Source: Escherichia phage vB_EcoM_WFH. Taken from it: DNA of 64,000 nucleotides. The notes under the pieces were generated by a model that saw only the letters and a list, made by a program, of their open reading frames with translations, was not told the DNA's origin and ran no database searches. The stretch lies in sequence record NC_048194.1; one strand, 5' to 3'. Positions 2,140 to 60,440 of the stretch are shown in pieces; the stretch's first letter is position 1, and each line of letters opens with the position of its first letter. The translations under genes and the position numbers were made by a program.

Positions 2140-3600
2140 ATGAATAAAATATTAACACATAATTGGAAAGTCATGTACCAGTTGAATCCTGCTTTAAGAG
2201 AAGTCTGGAAGACGAAAGCGCGATACAAAGTCATATACGGCGGTCGTGCATCTTCCAAATCGCACGATGCCGCTGGTTTTGCTATTTATTTGGCGGCAAA
2301 CTTCAAATTAAAATTCCTTTGCGTTCGACAATTCCAGAACAAGATTTCTGAATCAGTATATACGCTATTAAAAGATAAAATAGAGATTTCTGATTTTAAA
2401 GACGAGTTCAACTTATTAAAAAACTCTATTGAACACAAAAGAACAAAATCTGAATTTTTATTTTACGGTATCGCACGCAACGTTGACGAAATCAAATCAA
2501 CAGAAGGTGTTGATGTTCTTTGGCTTGAAGAAGCGCATGCACTGACTGAAGAGCAATGGGACATTATTGAGCCGACAATTCGTAAGGAAGGGTCCGAAAT
2601 ATGGATCATATTTAACCCTGATGAAGAGGCTGATTTCGTCTACCAGAACTTTGTTATGCGACCGCCGAAAAATGCCATCGTTAAGAAGATTAACTGGCAG
2701 GACAATCCATTCTTGTCGCAAACAATGCTGGATGTTATCGCTGGCATGTATGAGCGCGACCCGAAAAAGGCAGAACACGTTTATGGCGGAGTGCCGAAGA
2801 CAGGTGGCGATAAGTCGGTCATCAACCGTGCATTCGTCAAAGCCGCGCTAAACCTCCACAAACACCCTACGCTGGGATGGAGCTTGTCAGGGTCTAACCG
2901 TATAGGCTTCGACGTGGCGGACGACGGCGACGACTTAAACGCCACAGCGTTTGTCACAGGCAACGTATTACGTGGCATCAAGACATGGGAAGGTCTGGAA
3001 GATGAATTGCTTAAGTCCGCAAGCGGAGTCTGGAAAGACGCATTGACATTCGGCGCATCAATCACCTATGACGCCATCGGTGTTGGTGCATTTGCTGGTT
3101 CAAAATTTGATGAGCTTAATGAGTATGCAATCCATGAAAATCCAACATTCCCAAGAATCGAATTTAATGCGTTCAACGCGCAAGGTGCTGTTGATGATCC
3201 TGATGACGTCTTCCTTGAGTTACCACACGTTGAAATACTCAATAAAGACCATTTCGCAAACATAAAAGCGCAAAAATGGACTGAGATTGCCGAACGATTC
3301 AGAAAGACATATGAGTATGCGACAGGGCAAGCCGTATATCCGACCGATGAGTTGATTTCCATCGACACAGACGGCATCCCAGAACTTGGTATTCCCGCTT
3401 GGTCTGCGGAAGAAATTGAGACGTTTCTTTTTGAGATGTCAGCACCGCGCAAAGACACGTCTGTACTTGGCAAGTTCAAAGTTGAATCGAAAAAGGATAT
3501 GGCAAAGCGTGGAGTCAAATCGCCTAACAAAGCGGACGCAGCAATCATGGCATTGATGAAACCAATTGTTGCAGCATCCGGCTTCTTCTCTAACCTTTAA
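2140..3600 (+). CDS. terL: terminase large subunit
   Basis: 486 aa; N-terminal ATPase Walker A-like KVIYGGRASSKSHDAAGF, Walker B-like VDVLWLEEAH, C-terminal nuclease-like region; first large gene of the morphogenesis block. Confidence 0.85.
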   Translation: MNKILTHNWKVMYQLNPALREVWKTKARYKVIYGGRASSKSHDAAGFAIYLAANFKLKFLCVRQFQNKISESVYTLLKDKIEISDFKDEFNLLKNSIEHKRTKSEFLFYGIARNVDEIKSTEGVDVLWLEEAHALTEEQWDIIEPTIRKEGSEIWIIFNPDEEADFVYQNFVMRPPKNAIVKKINWQDNPFLSQTMLDVIAGMYERDPKKAEHVYGGVPKTGGDKSVINRAFVKAALNLHKHPTLGWSLSGSNRIGFDVADDGDDLNATAFVTGNVLRGIKTWEGLEDELLKSASGVWKDALTFGASITYDAIGVGAFAGSKFDELNEYAIHENPTFPRIEFNAFNAQGAVDDPDDVFLELPHVEILNKDHFANIKAQKWTEIAERFRKTYEYATGQAVYPTDELISIDTDGIPELGIPAWSAEEIETFLFEMSAPRKDTSVLGKFKVESKKDMAKRGVKSPNKADAAIMALMKPIVAASGFFSNL

Positions 3601-3603
3601 CAA

Positions 3604-3843
3604 TTAAAGCATTCCGTGCTGAAGGTCGAGCTTTCTTGCGGCAAACGACCTGGCACGGAATCGCTTACCCGCCCTTACTGCCTGTCGAATTTTCTTTTGC
3701 AAACACTTACGGTCAAAATCGTTGCGGTCGACGGCTTCGAGTAAATCGCGACGCAGTGCACCCAGTGTCGACTTTTCGGAGACTTCAACGCCCAGCGCGG
3801 CTGCAACATCTTTCAAAACATCGAGTTCGGTTAAAGTTCTCAT
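3604..3843 (-). CDS. hypothetical protein with Rho-N/SAP-like N-terminal helix motif
   Basis: 79 aa, MRTLTELDVLKDVAAALGVEV... resembles Rho_N-type helix-extended-helix; basic C-terminus; opposite strand to flanking terL/portal. Confidence 0.4.
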   Translation of the reverse strand: MRTLTELDVLKDVAAALGVEVSEKSTLGALRRDLLEAVDRNDFDRKCLQKKIRQAVRAGKRFRARSFAARKLDLQHGML

Positions 3844-4256
3844 TTGATAATCCCCTTGATGTCTGATTCTGCCATAAAGATTGGAGTGCCGCCGCCAGGA
3901 ACAATCGAGCGCGTGACCTTGTCAAACATATCGTTTTCTTCAACTTGAATACGATAAAATTTATTTTTGGATGAAGATGGGCACAATCCCATAAATTTGC
4001 CGATGCCGCGAACGCATTCATCTTCAAAGTATACTGTTTCACCTTGAATGGAGTCGATGTCGTCTACTGGATAGACCTTGCGACCCAATAGCCACTCATC
4101 CAAAGTCGCCTGCAAGACGTTGCGCGCATCTAAAATCCACGGGTCAATAGTAGCACCTTCATATCGCGCAGCAGTGGCCTTTGCCAGTTCTTCATATTCG
4201 CATACGTTAACGACTTCGCCGTTGTGCAAGACGACAAATACAATTGTTGTGCTCAT
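3840..4256 (-). CDS. hypothetical protein (138 aa)
   Basis: Track ORF with ATG start, overlapping stop of downstream gene (operon pair); no recognised motif. Confidence 0.4.
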   Translation of the reverse strand: MSTTIVFVVLHNGEVVNVCEYEELAKATAARYEGATIDPWILDARNVLQATLDEWLLGRKVYPVDDIDSIQGETVYFEDECVRGIGKFMGLCPSSSKNKFYRIQVEENDMFDKVTRSIVPGGGTPIFMAESDIKGIIK

Positions 4257-4418: not shown

Positions 4419-6794
4419 ATGAAAATTCTTGGCATAAAACTCTGGGAGAAGACGCAACCAGAAGCCGAACCAGCGGAGATGCCGCCAGGCGACCCATTGG
4501 CACCGTTTGAACGCCTTGAAAGGCGCGGCAGCGGTCAACGCTGGGAAAAGACTGAAAGCAATCGACCGACCTTTAAAACGGTTGATGACTTCCCTTTATA
4601 TGAGCCTGATATTAATGGCGATGGTGTTGCAATCATAAAAGGTCGTTCAGTCGATTCCGCAACAGTATCCAAAAAGGTTATGGATAATGCCTTAAAGAAC
4701 ATCAGTTCAGAAGGGCAAGTCAACCCATACACAGTACCTATTCAACTTCAAAACTGGTATTTGTCACAGTCATTCATCGGCTATCAAGCTTGTGCCATCA
4801 TCGCACAGCATTGGCTGGTGAACAAGGCATGTTCCATGGTAGGCCGCGATGCGGTCCGTAAAGGTTGGGAAGTCAAATCCAGTTCTGAGTCAGAATTGTC
4901 AGTACAGGCAAGCGAACGCCTAAAGCAAATTGATAAAGAATTTAATATCAAAGAGCACTTAGTTGAAGCCGAACGATTCAAAAATATTTTTGGTATCCGC
5001 GTCATCATATTTGATGTGCGTAGCGATGACCCAGAATATTACAGCAAGCCTTTTAACATTGATGGCGTGACAAAGGGGTCTTATAAGGGAATCATTCAGG
5101 TTGACCCTTATTGGATGATGCCGTTTCTGACGTCTGAAAACACCGCCGACCCTGCATCACAGCACTTCTATGATCCAGAATACTGGGTGATCAGCGGACA
5201 ACGTTATCATCGCAGCCACCTAATCATCTTGCGCAATGATGAGCCAGCTGATATTCTCAAGCCAACTTATATTTACGGCGGCATTCCTCTGACTCAGCAG
5301 ATTTATGAACGCATCTATGCCGCTGAACGTACCGCTAACGAAGCGCCATTGCTGGCAATGTCCAAGCGTACAACCACGCTGCGGACAGACGTTGACAAGG
5401 CGATTGCCAATGAGCGGTCTTTTGCAGAACGTCTGATGATGTGGATCAAGTACCGCGACAACTATGCAGTCAAAGTGCTTGGCCAAAAAGAAGAGATGGA
5501 CCAGTTTGACATTAACTTGTCAGACTTCGACAGCATCATCATGAACCAGTACCAGCTTGTGGCCGCAATCGCAAAAGTTCCGTCGACCAAACTGCTTGGG
5601 ACTTCGCCAAAAGGCTTTAACGCCACTGGTGAATTCGAGATGGTCAGCTATCACGAAGAGTTGGAAACGTGCCAGCAGCATGACCTGACAAAAATTCTCG
5701 ACCGCCATTACAAAATCCTTCTCAAATCAGAAGGGGTGGATGTCGATGTTAAGGTTGCATGGGAACCAGTTGGCTCACTTACTGCTACTCAACTTGCAGA
5801 AATCAATGATAAGCGAGCCAACACTGGCAAAACTCTTATTGATGCTGGCGTCATTTCTCCTGATGAAGAGCGCGACCGCATCAAAGACGACAAAAACAGC
5901 GGCTACAACCGTCTGCCGGAAGACGCAGCAGAAGAAACCCCAGGGATGTCTCCAGAGAATATGGCATTGCTTGGCAAGTCTGCTGGTGAAGTCCTGCAAG
6001 GTAAGGCCGATATTGAACAGGCGAAAGCTGATGTCGTTAAGATGGGCGGCCAGTTCTATAGCGAAACAGGTATTATGCCAGAGGGTGCCGCGCGTGGTGA
6101 GTTGGCGGAAAACCCTGACAAAGCGCCTGTCGAAATCAACATGGACGATACCGATGATGAATCAAGCCATCAGGTTGATGTCCTAACGCAGTTGAAAGAA
6201 GGGCTGGAGGGTATTGCGGATTACTACCTGAAAGAAGGTCAGGATGTGGATTTTGACCCTCAAAAAGATTCACGGTCGGTGCAACCGTCTACCCTTCCAA
6301 GCGTTAAAGGACACGTCGTCAACTTACGCCACAACGTGGGTAAAATGGACGCAGCATCATTACCTAAGATGAAGTTGCACGGAATGATTCTTGGCATTGA
6401 GAATCCGCGAAACAGCATTCGTAGAGGAAACAGCCTTGACGGTGAATGGGCCGTGAAGATGCCGCACCACTACGGATTCATCAAGGGCACCAAGGGCGCA
6501 GACGGTGATGAAGTCGACTGCTTTGTGGGTCCAAATCTGAAGTCGCCGAAAGTCTTTATCGTGAACCAAAACGATAACTACTCTGGCGAGTTTGATGAAC
6601 ACAAGTGTATGCTTGGATTCGATTCAGCAGAAGAAGCGAAAGAAGCTTATCAAGCATCATTTGGTAACGGTTGGAACGGATTCGACTCAATCCACGAATT
6701 AGATGTGAACTCATTCAAGGAGTGGTTGAAGGGTGATTGCTCTCAAGCATACGGAGCACTCAATAATCCTACTAATTCACCGAAGCAAGGTTGA
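4419..6794 (+). CDS. putative portal protein with C-terminal inorganic-pyrophosphatase-like domain
   Basis: ATG at 4419 with RBS aggtgg (track start 4386 is TTG). Position immediately after terL and size suggest portal; C-terminal ~120 aa carry DGDEVDC (PPase signature pattern) and GFDSAEEAKEAYQASF resembling E. coli Ppa C-terminus. Confidence 0.55.
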   Translation: MKILGIKLWEKTQPEAEPAEMPPGDPLAPFERLERRGSGQRWEKTESNRPTFKTVDDFPLYEPDINGDGVAIIKGRSVDSATVSKKVMDNALKNISSEGQVNPYTVPIQLQNWYLSQSFIGYQACAIIAQHWLVNKACSMVGRDAVRKGWEVKSSSESELSVQASERLKQIDKEFNIKEHLVEAERFKNIFGIRVIIFDVRSDDPEYYSKPFNIDGVTKGSYKGIIQVDPYWMMPFLTSENTADPASQHFYDPEYWVISGQRYHRSHLIILRNDEPADILKPTYIYGGIPLTQQIYERIYAAERTANEAPLLAMSKRTTTLRTDVDKAIANERSFAERLMMWIKYRDNYAVKVLGQKEEMDQFDINLSDFDSIIMNQYQLVAAIAKVPSTKLLGTSPKGFNATGEFEMVSYHEELETCQQHDLTKILDRHYKILLKSEGVDVDVKVAWEPVGSLTATQLAEINDKRANTGKTLIDAGVISPDEERDRIKDDKNSGYNRLPEDAAEETPGMSPENMALLGKSAGEVLQGKADIEQAKADVVKMGGQFYSETGIMPEGAARGELAENPDKAPVEINMDDTDDESSHQVDVLTQLKEGLEGIADYYLKEGQDVDFDPQKDSRSVQPSTLPSVKGHVVNLRHNVGKMDAASLPKMKLHGMILGIENPRNSIRRGNSLDGEWAVKMPHHYGFIKGTKGADGDEVDCFVGPNLKSPKVFIVNQNDNYSGEFDEHKCMLGFDSAEEAKEAYQASFGNGWNGFDSIHELDVNSFKEWLKGDCSQAYGALNNPTNSPKQG

Positions 6795-6795
6795 T

Positions 6796-7647
6796 ATGGC
6801 TTTTAAAGCTTCGAAAAAACGTGAACGCCGCTCACCCGATAGAATCGGGCGCGGCAGTCCGATAATCCCATCAAACGCTATTGCGATGGCCTACCGTCGT
6901 GAGATGAAAGGTCTTTGCTATGCGATGATTGATGACTATCAGGCAGGAATTTCAGAGTGGCTTGAAAAGAAGCAGGTGCAGAAGTTCTTTGCGCAAGACT
7001 CTGCTGATTCAACATTCCAAACTCTTATGAAACGTCTGCAGCTGAAATGGGCAAAGGCGTTTGCTCGTGTTGGGTCGAAGATTGCCGCTGATTTTATCAA
7101 GTCGGTTGAAAAGGGTGCTACTTCTGCTACATTCGCCAGCCTTAAGTCCGCAGGCATAGAAGCGCCAAAGGCCACATATAACAAATTCGTTGAGAACACT
7201 CTTAGAACAAGCGAGACGTTTAACACGACTCTAGTGACTAAGGTCGGCGAGGATATTCACAACAGAGTGTACGAAGCAGTCATGCTTTCGCTGACTTCGC
7301 CCGACCCAGCCCAGCAAGGCACGTCAGGCATTCAGGCGGCGCTGCGAAACGTAAAACACTTCTCTGCAAAGAGAGTCGACTTAATCGCTAAAGACCAGAC
7401 AAGCAAATTGTATTGCGTTCTAAGCGATGAAAGGATGCGCCAGAATGGAGTTGAAGAATTTGAATGGGCGCACTCAGGAGCAGGAAAGGAGCCGCGAATC
7501 TCTCATGAACATGTCGACGGAATGAGATTCAAACTTGATGACAAGCGTCTATGGGAAGTGGGCGGAGAGTTGAAGTTCAAAAAGGGTGACATCGGTCCTC
7601 CTGGATGGGCGATACACTGCAAGTGCAGAAAAATACCAATCATTTGA
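6796..7647 (+). CDS. head morphogenesis protein (Mu gpF / SPP1 gp7-like)
   Basis: ATG at 6796 directly after portal stop (track start 6733 is an upstream GTG overlapping portal); C-terminal ...GPPGWAIHCKCRK motif typical of MuF-like family. Confidence 0.6.
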   Translation: MAFKASKKRERRSPDRIGRGSPIIPSNAIAMAYRREMKGLCYAMIDDYQAGISEWLEKKQVQKFFAQDSADSTFQTLMKRLQLKWAKAFARVGSKIAADFIKSVEKGATSATFASLKSAGIEAPKATYNKFVENTLRTSETFNTTLVTKVGEDIHNRVYEAVMLSLTSPDPAQQGTSGIQAALRNVKHFSAKRVDLIAKDQTSKLYCVLSDERMRQNGVEEFEWAHSGAGKEPRISHEHVDGMRFKLDDKRLWEVGGELKFKKGDIGPPGWAIHCKCRKIPII

Positions 7648-7654
7648 GGTCATT

Positions 7655-8575
7655 ATGACGATACCAATCAGCACGTTTCCTCTATCTGGACAAACGCCAG
7701 TATTGCCTGCTGTATATGCTAACGGTTTGGCGATTGTTTCGGAATTCACATCCGATAAAAACCTGATTGTTCCATTGAGTCCGCCATTGGCGTCTGGATA
7801 CAATTCAGTTGGCCAGTTCTTTATGATCGGTAATGATGGCGATTCTACCAGCAAGCCGAATCTGACACTTTCAGTTCCCAAAATGAACATAACAGACGTG
7901 CAGACTGGTTTAACTGCATCTACGATCACCATCGCTTTTGGAGAAGCAGTGATTATAGGCATGGAGTCTGGAGGGTCCAATAATGCTGTCGCCGTTAAGG
8001 TAGTCAAATCCAGCAGCAACCAATACACACTACCAGCGGCAACGGCTTCTATTCTCGGCGGCGTCAAAATAGGAAGTGGCATAAGCGTTGCAGGTGACGG
8101 TACAATTAGTGTGACTCAATACTCATTACCGATTGCATCAGCATCAACCTTGGGTGGCATAAAGGTAGGAACGACACTATCAATTGATGGTTCTGGCGTC
8201 CTTAATGCTGCTGCAAGTACTGTGCAGAACGCAAGCAACAGCGTAAGCAATCCTCCGACAACTCTGGTGAATCTGGCAACCTTAAACCTGCCTGCAGGGA
8301 AATGGCTTGTGACAGCAAGTCAGTTGACTGTCGCGACAGCAGGAGTTCAAGCGAATACCGGAATTACAGTCAAACTGTCAACAAGTAATTCAGATATTAC
8401 GGATGATGCATTTACAATGTCAGCTGGAATTCGGGCTGCAGGTCGTTTCGGCGGCAATATTCCAACAAAGATAATTACCCTTGCCGCGCCTGGCAACGTG
8501 TATCTAAACTATCAATGCACAGACGCATTGACATCTACCGTTTACGGACAGATCACCGCAATTAAGTTGAACTAA
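7655..8575 (+). CDS. virion structural protein with fibre-like internal repeats
   Basis: ATG at 7655 with RBS gagg; repeated ...ASILGGVKIGSGISV.. / ..ASTLGGIKVGTTLSI.. units, Ser/Thr/Gly-rich. Confidence 0.45.
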   Translation: MTIPISTFPLSGQTPVLPAVYANGLAIVSEFTSDKNLIVPLSPPLASGYNSVGQFFMIGNDGDSTSKPNLTLSVPKMNITDVQTGLTASTITIAFGEAVIIGMESGGSNNAVAVKVVKSSSNQYTLPAATASILGGVKIGSGISVAGDGTISVTQYSLPIASASTLGGIKVGTTLSIDGSGVLNAAASTVQNASNSVSNPPTTLVNLATLNLPAGKWLVTASQLTVATAGVQANTGITVKLSTSNSDITDDAFTMSAGIRAAGRFGGNIPTKIITLAAPGNVYLNYQCTDALTSTVYGQITAIKLN

Positions 8576-8723: not shown

Positions 8724-8756
8724 ATCGCCTGGCAATGGATTGCCGCAGGATTTTAC

Positions 8757-9040
8757 GCGTATAATGACGTATCATCCGTATCAAGTAAGTAGTTGTTTTC
8801 AAAAGAATCTTACGGATGATACGGATGATACGCGTTGCCGCGATACTTTATAGGAATTCAAATAAATTAATTTAAAATTATATATCTAATTTAATTTTAT
8901 TTTTTTATAAACTCTTATATATGAAAAGTATCCGTATCATCCGTATCATCCGTAGCACACCAGTGATAGCGCGGCTTATACACCGATACGGATAAAAATA
9001 CGCCTCATTTTATCCGTATCATCCGTATCACACTAATTAA
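8757..9040. repeat. iteron module copy A: tandem/inverted 9-mers (CCGTATCAT / TTATCCGTA) flanking an AT-rich spacer
   Basis: gcgtataatgacgta..., cttacggatgatacggatgatacgcg, ~90-bp AT-rich tract, then tccgtatcatccgtatcatccgta and ttatccgtatcatccgtatca; 45-bp core nearly identical (2 mismatches) to 60229-60273. Confidence 0.7.
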
Positions 9041-9145
9041 GGCGCGACTATATCGGTTGTTATACATATTCAAACCATAATTATTGTTTGCCTAAGTTTT
9101 TTTCATTAGATATAATACACAATACTTATTTGAGGGTGGATGCGA

Positions 9146-10558
9146 ATGCAAACGGCACGCGAAATTGACAAAAATGGATTCTTGACGATTGTGGGTTGTC
9201 CCATTTCGTCATTTGGCATTTTTGATTATTCTGCAGGTCAGGTTGGACTTGATGGTGATCCGAATCGCATCGTAAAAGTTTATCGCCCAGAGTCAGCGGT
9301 GAAAGACCCCGAAGCGATAGATTCATTCAAAAATATCCCTTTCATCGACAATCACGAAATGCTTTCTGGATTCGAAGGTGATGAGGATAACACAGCACCC
9401 GAAGAGTATGGCGTTGATGGCGTTCTAACTGGCAATGTTTATTATGACAAGCCATGGATGCGCGGCGACCTTAAAGTTTTTAGCCGTCGTCTGAAGAAGG
9501 CCATCGATTCTGGAAAGGTTGACTTGTCTTTGGGCTATGACTGTGAATTCATCATACAGTCTGGAGAGTTTGACGGGCAGCCGTATGAAGTGGTACAGAC
9601 AACTCTTCGCGGCAACCACATTGCTCTCGTGGACGTTGGTCGAGTACCAGGTGCACGGGTGCTGGATGGTCGTTGCTTTGACCATCTTTGTTTGACGACT
9701 GTAACACCATCCAACGAGGATTTAGACATGCCAAAACCGTTAAAAGGTAAAGCGCGTGATAATGCTGTTGAACAGCTGAAATCACTGATCCCTGCGCTCG
9801 AACAATTTCTGAATGAAGAGAGCACCGAAGCTGCTCATCAGGACGAAGTTGAAGTGAAAGCAGAAGAGAAGGATTCAACCGAAGAACGTGAAGAAGTGAT
9901 GGTTGATCCAGAAGTCAAAGCAGAAGCTGAAGAGACTCCAGAAGGTGAAGAGAAGTTTGAAGTTGAAACTGAATCTCACGCTGGCGGCGAGCTTCCGCAA
10001 CTGATCAGCCAAATCGAAGCACTTATTGCAAAACTGAAAGGTGGCGCGGTAGGTGATGAAGAAGAAGTTGAAGCCGAAGTCAAAGACGAAGAAGTTGAAG
10101 TCAAGGCTGAAGATGTATCACCTTGCGACAAAGCTGAAGATGTGGTTAGCGGCCTGCAAAACAGCAACGTAAAGGGGGCTTCGGTCGAAAAAGATGACAA
10201 ACCGACAAAAGCGGCGAAAGCGTCGCCAGGTCCAGCAAAAGGGGAACACTCAATGGCATCTGATTCAGCAGTTGCTGCTTTCTACGCTGATTCTGCTCGT
10301 AAGAATAGCCTCTACCAGCGCCTGTCTAAAGTTGTTGGTGCCTTTGATCATGCAACTATGGACTCCAAGTCCGTAGCGAAATATGGCGCTAAAAAGTTAG
10401 GCTTGAAGTGCGTTGATGGTGCTGAGTTTGACGTGGTGGATAATTATCTGCGCGGCGTTGAACACGGTCAAAAACAGCGTGTAGTCGCAAAACAAAAGGC
10501 CGCTGCGGATTCTGCAGCAACTGACGAAGCATTTGAAGCTTGGTTGAAAGGGGAATAA
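9146..10558 (+). CDS. putative scaffolding protein (possibly protease-scaffold fusion)
   Basis: Position between MuF-like and capsid genes; long highly acidic Glu-rich central region (EEREEVMVDPEVKAEAEETPEGEEKFEVETE...); RBS gagggtgg. Confidence 0.45.
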   Translation: MQTAREIDKNGFLTIVGCPISSFGIFDYSAGQVGLDGDPNRIVKVYRPESAVKDPEAIDSFKNIPFIDNHEMLSGFEGDEDNTAPEEYGVDGVLTGNVYYDKPWMRGDLKVFSRRLKKAIDSGKVDLSLGYDCEFIIQSGEFDGQPYEVVQTTLRGNHIALVDVGRVPGARVLDGRCFDHLCLTTVTPSNEDLDMPKPLKGKARDNAVEQLKSLIPALEQFLNEESTEAAHQDEVEVKAEEKDSTEEREEVMVDPEVKAEAEETPEGEEKFEVETESHAGGELPQLISQIEALIAKLKGGAVGDEEEVEAEVKDEEVEVKAEDVSPCDKAEDVVSGLQNSNVKGASVEKDDKPTKAAKASPGPAKGEHSMASDSAVAAFYADSARKNSLYQRLSKVVGAFDHATMDSKSVAKYGAKKLGLKCVDGAEFDVVDNYLRGVEHGQKQRVVAKQKAAADSAATDEAFEAWLKGE

Positions 10559-60143: not shown

Positions 60144-60440
60144 AGCGTATAATGACGTAAGATTTGGACCTATCCGTAGTTCACTCCACACACTTCTATG
60201 GTGCGCCGCGACTGGGTTCAGTGGTACATCTTACGGATGATACGGATGATACGCGTCGCCGCTATACTTTATACAACTTTGAAAAAAACAATTAACTCCA
60301 TTTTGAATTAATTTAAATTAATTTTTTTCTACATCCTCATACTTATACTAAACTTATATTTATACGTATTATCCGTAAGATATAAGTAAAAACAAAGACT
60401 TGCGGCAATACGGATGATACGTCATGATACGCTTCAACCA
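60144..60440. repeat. iteron module copy B (homologous to 8757-9040)
   Basis: gcgtataatgacgta...; tcttacggatgatacggatgatacgcgtcgccgctatactttata (45-bp core, 2 mismatches vs copy A); AT-rich spacer; ttatccgtaag and caatacggatgatacgtcatgatacgc. Confidence 0.7.

Follow-up and report, generated by a model that had tools for sequence, protein, structure and literature searches.

A pyrophosphatase-like InPase domain on the portal protein of Escherichia phage vB_EcoM_WFH, a candidate virion-packaged effector

The portal protein of Escherichia phage vB_EcoM_WFH (sequence record NC_048194.1) carries at its C-terminus a pyrophosphatase-like domain of the InPase family, and the most likely role of this domain is that of an effector enzyme packaged in the virion while tethered to the portal, a reading to which we assign a probability of roughly 0.55. 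The fusion gene occupies positions 4419..6794 on the plus strand of the 64,000-nucleotide (nt) stretch analyzed here (the window) and encodes 791 amino acids (aa) plus a stop codon, with AGGTGG ahead of the ATG at 4419. The original prediction, made from the sequence alone, had recognized a pyrophosphatase module on a putative portal and knew of no description of such an arrangement. The fold assignment is correct, but the family and its portal fusion were both published in 2017 (Iyer et al. 2017, J Bacteriol, PMC5512222). That study defined the InPase clade as type I pyrophosphatase domains without the β-hairpin of the solved enzymes, noted its fusion to portals (Burkholderia phage BcepF1.124), proposed a nucleotide-like substrate or clearance of inorganic pyrophosphate (PPi), and drew the same effector inference. 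The window protein is thus a typical representative of a published domain family, and its architecture has been published as well. In the literature beyond Iyer et al. 2017, no paper was found that ties the portal to a pyrophosphatase in these phages; the BASEL paper on Wifcevirus, the genus of E. coli and Shigella myophages (~68 kb) to which the window belongs, does not mention the InPase domain, and the paper on phage K8 contains no portal data.

Identity and Fold of the InPase Domain

The Pfam profile PF18823 (InPase) matches aa 649-771 over profile positions 12-135 of 135, with 157.1 bits against a curated gathering cut-off of 26.8 (E = 2.9e-46). The domain spans approximately aa 645-775 (6351..6743, plus strand) and has a trimmed family I pyrophosphatase fold, that is, an oligonucleotide/oligosaccharide-binding (OB) barrel. 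It had been placed at 6430-6794 with a length of about 120 residues; the C-terminal location stands, but the start lies some 70-80 nt farther upstream (~6351-6363), giving a domain of about 130 residues followed by a 16-residue tail. The strings quoted in support of that placement are all at the expected places: HHYGFI at aa 683-688 (nt 6465-6482), AEEAKEAYQASF at aa 737-748, and DGDEVDC at aa 695-701 (6501..6521, plus strand). The last of these, which contains D695, D697, and D700, is the pyrophosphatase metal-binding and general-base signature; it fits the family I PROSITE-type pattern D-[SGDN]-D-[PE]-[LIVMF]-D-[LIVMGAC] (PS00387) and is the sole match to that pattern in a six-frame translation of the window. 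A second invariant acidic/basic cluster, FDEHK (D726, E727, and K729; 6591..6605, plus strand), is conserved in 163-164 of the 164 InPase domains that were taken from the best representatives of an exhaustive homologue search and that serve for all conservation counts given here.

An AlphaFold2 model of aa 640-791, built from 20 sequences, has a mean predicted local distance difference test score (pLDDT) of 88.5 and a predicted template modeling (TM) score of 0.83, and consists of a β-barrel followed by a helix, a strand, and two further helices. When this model was compared with the PDB by Foldseek, every one of the 25 matches at E <= 0.001 was a family I pyrophosphatase, with TM scores of ~0.45-0.5. 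The pyrophosphatase-type fold is thus borne out by the PF18823 profile, by the model and its structural matches, and by the profile alignment discussed below. From the first strand to the YG strand the chain is shortened, with 24 residues separating the glutamate of IENP from the YG tyrosine, whereas E. coli Ppa has 35 (E20 to Y55). Such spacing fits a deletion at the clade-defining hairpin, yet the model keeps a short hairpin at aa 667-680.

Conserved Residues and Relationship to E. coli Ppa

The residues conserved in at least 90% of the family domains are E661, N662, R668, G670, W677, Y685, G686, D695, D697, D700, Q717, D726, E727, H728, K729, A740, Y744, and W769, and all are present in the window protein. 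Among them, E661, R668, Y685, D695, D697, D700, Q717, D726, E727, K729, and Y744 are invariant or nearly so in a diverse set; for the three signature aspartates the counts are 162/164 (D695), 156/164 (D697), and 164/164 (D700). Measured against vB_Eco4M-7, the most divergent congener, the ratio of nonsynonymous to synonymous substitution rates (dN/dS) is 0.017 for the InPase domain, 0.021 for the linker that precedes it, and 0.008 for the portal core. A degenerate domain, which had been considered at the outset, is ruled out by the complete set of invariant residues together with the dN/dS value, both of which point to a likely active enzyme. The accompanying estimate that about 45 residues are absent relative to a full pyrophosphatase does agree with the comparison, and the shortfall is most readily accounted for by separate deletions at three places: ~11 residues from strand 1 to the YG strand, ~8 after the DxDxxD strand, and ~22 from the D102/K104 strand to the next helix. 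The window domain differs from E. coli Ppa (PF00719, PS00387) in this shorter length and also in being the C-terminal module of a structural protein rather than a free cytoplasmic enzyme.

The active site of Ppa comprises E20, K29, E31, R43, Y51, Y55, D65, D67, D70, D97, D102, K104, Y141, and K142. Direct comparison by phmmer with pyrophosphatases in the PDB gave E = 0.12-0.8, while hhalign of the 164 InPase domains against a Ppa alignment gave a probability of 92% (E = 6.5e-7). Its confident block pairs HYGFIKGTKGADGDEVDCFV with the Ppa stretch holding Y55, D65, D67, and D70, and both programs align D695, D697, and D700 with D65, D67, and D70. Against the single Ppa sequence, hhalign aligned 26 columns only. 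The Ppa profile is itself shallow because every homologue retrieved for it was at least 82% identical, and the Ppa query differs at three non-catalytic positions from the database representative P0176. Greedy extension of the hhalign alignment outside the YG...DGDxVD block is of low confidence and at FDEHK disagrees with the model's strand order. Judged by chain order, plausible invariant counterparts are E661 for E20, R668 for R43, D726 for D102, K729 for K104, and Y744 for what is probably Y141. The strand order of the model, as opposed to a superposition, likewise suggests that FDEHK would be the equivalent of D102/K104. The position of Ppa D97 is variable in the family, with D719 shared by 93 of the 164 domains.

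The Portal and Its Fusion

The N-terminal part of the protein is a genuine portal, as the putative assignment had it, given its match to Phage_portal_3 (PF06381; aa 122-468, 4782..5822, plus strand; E = 3.3e-88) and its homology to solved dodecameric portals. The portal chain of phage E217 (8fvh_O) matches aa 107-538 with E = 9.5e-190, and gp19 of phage Pa193 (PDB 9b41, chain 9b41_L, 765 aa) can be aligned with aa 14-779 at E = 5.6e-251. The reading frame at 4419-6794 runs through all 791 codons with zero interruptions. It is covered over its full length in 27 of 27 Wifcevirus records at 91-99% nucleotide identity, and is 99.3% identical to a gene annotated "minor head protein" in phage ManiWeber_Bas99. 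In phages Mansfield, vB_Eco4M-7, and RCIP0319 the portal and InPase are annotated as a single coding sequence; the second feature at this locus in Wifcevirus records comes from the next gene, whose start overlaps. The full length of the protein is covered by PHROG 4660, and the portal-InPase fusion therefore constitutes a protein family of its own. By tblastn the domain was detected in 469 phage records, ~300 of them from Pseudomonas phages (Pbunavirus), with other carriers among Wifcevirus, Serratia phages MTx and MyoSmar, Xanthomonas phage XcP1, and Burkholderia phages. The same search located InPase within large proteins of other phages annotated as "DNA methylase," "ParB-like," or "tail."

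Between portal core and InPase lie a helix and a linker. A long helix predicted at aa 512-541 (5952..6041, plus strand) is the counterpart of the C-terminal barrel helix of E217 and Pa193, which extends into the head. It is followed by an acidic, mainly disordered linker at aa 542-644 (6042..6350, plus strand); the net charge over aa 539-644 is -11, and in a second AlphaFold2 model, covering aa 500-791, pLDDT falls below 50 at aa 543-574 and aa 599-641, while the InPase domain is again well folded. Within the linker are a predicted amphipathic helix at aa 581-602 (HQVDVLTQLKEGLEGIADYY; 6159..6224, plus strand) and, at aa 619-624, the semi-conserved sequence R-[ST]-V-[KQ]-P-S, both of which reappear across genera (6159-6290, aa 581-624) and could represent a docking or processing element. 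Across genera, identity is 60-80% in the portal core and ~60-64% in the InPase domain but 15-25%, with indels, in the linker. The linker is nonetheless constrained within Wifcevirus, and the dN/dS value given above suggests that it has a role of its own.

For E217 and Pa193, the models obtained by cryo-electron microscopy (cryo-EM) follow the portal chain to residue 528 only, its C-terminal helical barrel points into the capsid, and residues 529-765 have no density; the pyrophosphatase-like domain is neither modeled nor mentioned in the structure papers. Since the C-terminus of these portals is inside the head, twelve InPase copies would be expected in each Wifcevirus head beside the packaged DNA, and by this homology they would sit on flexible tethers near the portal.

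InPase Relatives and Their Settings

The homologue search with the InPase domain returned 11,272 clusters at E <= 0.001, of which 9,365 are at E <= 1e-10. The best 150 representatives sit in carrier proteins whose lengths have a median of 957 aa and a maximum of 6,421 aa, the size range of the giant polyvalent proteins that make up most of the family's carriers. Two metagenomic relatives of the window portal have a further enzyme after InPase: an ADP-ribosyltransferase (PF03496) in P0026 (1,191 aa) and a topoisomerase IB (PF01028) in P0031 (1,106 aa). Portals of this lineage therefore bear enzyme arrays and resemble small polyvalent proteins. InPase also occurs as stand-alone proteins (P0008 and P0009) whose genes lie directly downstream of LydB and DarA_N in P1-like Dar operons. 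Dar operons encode capsid-internal, injected antirestriction proteins. In the window the domain likewise has a phage and virion-associated context, being carried on the portal in a module that encodes terminase large subunit (TerL), portal, MuF, protease, and major capsid protein. In two contigs of ~70 kb, stand-alone InPase genes encoding 232-241 aa close P1-like LydB - DarA_N operons (L002 6001-6726 and L003 6001-6699); in L003 a holin gene is called upstream, and a GmrSD_N gene is located near the InPase gene.

A Packaged Effector and Its Alternatives

From this architecture a packaged effector might work as follows. The dodecameric Wifcevirus portal would hold, at each inward-facing C-terminus, an acidic flexible tether of ~100 residues ending in an InPase domain, and the portal would thereby serve as a capsid-targeting device that has the domain in place as soon as the next infection begins. 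There it would act as a Mg2+-dependent phosphoanhydride hydrolase on PPi or on a nucleotide-derived pyrophosphate. Release of the domain would be needed for action in the next host because the tether is far too short for the tail, and the head maturation protease, encoded 2.3 kb downstream of the fusion gene, is a candidate for the proteolytic step that is probably required. We infer, then, an InPase that is internal to the head, catalytically competent toward such a substrate, cleaved, and ejected. A packaged effector is favored over its alternatives by the related portals that carry an ADP-ribosyltransferase or topoisomerase IB, together with the InPase genes in Dar operons.

Several observations weigh against this reading. 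While bound to the portal, the InPase domain cannot exit the capsid, and no maturation-cleavage motif emerged when the linker was compared with the points at which the models begin, residue 66 for the E217 major capsid protein and, for the portal, residue 94 in Pa193 and 97 in E217. The Pa193 paper reports that the N-terminal 93 residues of the portal are absent from liquid chromatography-mass spectrometry and does not comment on the C-terminus, which is compatible with InPase staying in the virion, attached or not. The classical pyrophosphatase profile PF00719, proposed at the outset as a check, remains below its gathering threshold (18.0 bits against 23.5, with aa 679-703 aligned). No counterparts of Ppa K29, E31, and K142 are evident in the 164-domain alignment and the comparison with Ppa, and therefore PPi itself may not be the substrate. 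Finally, full-text literature searches retrieved no biochemical assay of any PF18823 domain, although the family exceeds 11,000 sequence clusters, and its activity has seemingly never been assayed.

The best-surviving alternative, which we consider somewhat unlikely, is that InPase is an active hydrolase whose work is confined to the procapsid or the cell that produces the phage, without any delivery. It could, for example, clear the PPi released by heavy late DNA and RNA synthesis or have a local role at the portal in packaging, and in the mature head it would be retained on the portal or degraded. PPi clearance is indeed listed as an alternative by Iyer et al. 2017 (PMC5512222). The lack of an identified cleavage site in the linker comparison, the disparity between a ~100-residue linker and a tail of ~1,300-1,500 Å, and the purifying selection on the linker (dN/dS 0.021) are all in keeping with a domain that stays where it is made. 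However, twelve copies per particle would be an inefficient bulk supply of pyrophosphatase, and the host already owns Ppa. ATP hydrolysis by terminase gives ADP and inorganic phosphate and produces no PPi. The portals with ADP-ribosyltransferase or topoisomerase IB and the Dar-operon setting likewise suggest cargo destined for the next host.

A more specific form of the packaged-effector proposal is that protease-cut, co-injected InPases act in the new host not on plain PPi but on a pyrophosphate derived from a nucleotide; examples would be an alarmone, a modified nucleotide, or a second messenger of immunity. Taken as a whole this is quite unlikely. In Ppa, K29 and K142 help to hold the leaving phosphate, and their apparent loss is compatible, speculatively, with a bulkier leaving group of nucleotide type. 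If the proposal is true, the portal would be a stoichiometric delivery vehicle for a virion-borne anti-defense enzyme in Wifcevirus and in therapeutic Pbunavirus phages.

It is very unlikely that InPase is a catalytically dead structural module of the head, whether as a plug, a spacer, a binder of the DNA end or of cations near the barrel, or a contact for assembly or scaffolding. Nucleic acid binding is conceivable for a barrel of OB type, and the shortfall of ~45 residues relative to Ppa, the missing equivalents of K29, E31, and K142, and the subthreshold PF00719 score would all suit such a module. Against it, the putative metal ligands and general base (D695, D697, D700, and D726) as well as K729 and Y685 are invariant across more than 160 domains, and InPase also exists as stand-alone proteins and inside polyvalent proteins. 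Given that this invariance extends to unrelated, portal-free architectures, catalysis is to be expected rather than a structural function specific to portals. The last alternative, that two genes were fused by an assembly or sequencing indel, as the original prediction allowed, is effectively excluded by comparative data: the frame is unbroken, with zero internal stops, in 27 Wifcevirus genomes that were sequenced independently and range down to 91% in nucleotide identity, homologous fusions occur in Serratia, Xanthomonas, and Burkholderia phages and by the hundreds in Pbunavirus, and the deposited 765-aa chain of Pa193 gp19 contains the domain.

Comparison with Known Systems

The closest known counterparts are the portals of the Pbunavirus/BcepF1 lineage (E217 and Pa193 gp19), which share with the window protein an N-terminal extension, a PF06381 portal, the barrel helix, a variable linker, and InPase, the InPase part of Pa193 gp19 being ~59% identical to that of the window. 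The gene order of portal, MuF-like gene, and head protease is shared as well. The window protein differs in its host (E. coli or Shigella) and genus (Wifcevirus), in its diverged linker, and in its length (791 versus 765 aa). Similarly, the invariant residues and the phage virion-associated context are those of InPase in PF18823 polyvalent proteins, and the shortened segment between strand 1 and YG would fit the loss of the hairpin that defines the clade. Unlike those proteins, which measure 1,000-6,000 aa, it is the portal itself that carries the window InPase, without another effector domain, and where most PF18823 members are preceded by an NYKKGH-like motif the window protein has ASLPKMK instead.

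Packaged and injected effectors include the T4 Alt ADP-ribosyltransferase, the P1 Dar proteins, and MuF-toxin fusions, as summarized in PMC5512222. The proposed role of the window InPase, a head-internal enzyme acting at the onset of the next infection, is like theirs, relatives of the window portal carry an Alt-like ADP-ribosyltransferase domain, and stand-alone InPase genes lie in Dar-like operons. In contrast to these systems, the window domain would reach the head by covalent fusion to the portal, in a fixed number of 12 copies, rather than through a capsid-targeting sequence, DarA, or MuF.

The implications extend to the phage-therapy relatives E217 and Pa193, in whose cryo-EM atlases ~240 C-terminal portal residues are invisible and undiscussed. 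BASEL Wifcevirus isolates grow on engineered E. coli K-12 with restored O-antigen and with cryptic prophages or defenses removed, and these hosts make the Wifcevirus portal a handy genetic handle on portals as possible carriers of injected enzymes and on the substrates of such enzymes.

Neighboring Genes and a Repeat-Bearing Gap

The fusion gene is part of a head-gene module in the order TerL (2140-3600), two small reverse-strand open reading frames (ORFs), portal-InPase, MuF-like gene, a gene at 7586-8575, head protease, cement protein, and major capsid protein. The two reverse-strand ORFs (3604-4256, minus strand; 79 and 138 aa) have PHROG 5124 (E = 2e-4), which is uninformative, as their only family match and are annotated "hypothetical" in phage Mansfield. 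The MuF-like head-morphogenesis gene of the SPP1 gp7/Mu F family (6796..7647, plus strand, ATG at 6796) matches PF04233 with 30.8 bits and PHROG 324 with E = 2.7e-68; in other phages MuF is the usual bearer of packaged effectors. The product of the gene at 7586-8575 (plus strand), between the MuF-like and protease genes, matches a head-fiber-like family over a short segment (PF11133, 27.7 bits) and, by way of repeated "...ASxLGGxKxG..." motifs, is weakly similar to tail-fiber PHROGs. In Pbunavirus NH-4 the corresponding position holds just two tiny ORFs, and the gene may therefore be specific to Wifcevirus. The head maturation protease (9140..10558, plus strand) belongs to the DUF2213 family (PHROG 3778, E = 8.5e-173; PF09979, E = 5e-35). 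Across the 64,000-nt window, ARAGORN found zero tRNA or tmRNA genes, and none of the Rfam families attained its gathering threshold.

Directly upstream of the protease gene is an ORF-free gap of ~415 nt (8724-9139). It contains six copies of CCGTATCATCCGTATCA on both strands (9-bp unit ATCCGTATC; 0 expected by chance), which surround an almost pure A/T stretch of ~70 nt, and a promoter-like TTGCCT-17-TATAAT at 9088-9116. The inverted CCGTATCATCCGTATCA copies account for an RNA fold z-score of -8.3. The same CTTACGGATGATACGGATGATACGCG element, again with an AT-rich run after it, is also present at 60229-60330. Identity across the gap is 94-99.8% in 27 of 27 Wifcevirus records, above the conservation of the portal gene, and the gap is nearly always unannotated; it could represent iterons with an AT-rich origin or, alternatively, a cluster of operator or promoter elements. 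At the equivalent position, Pbunavirus NH-4 shows a gap of ~510 nt.

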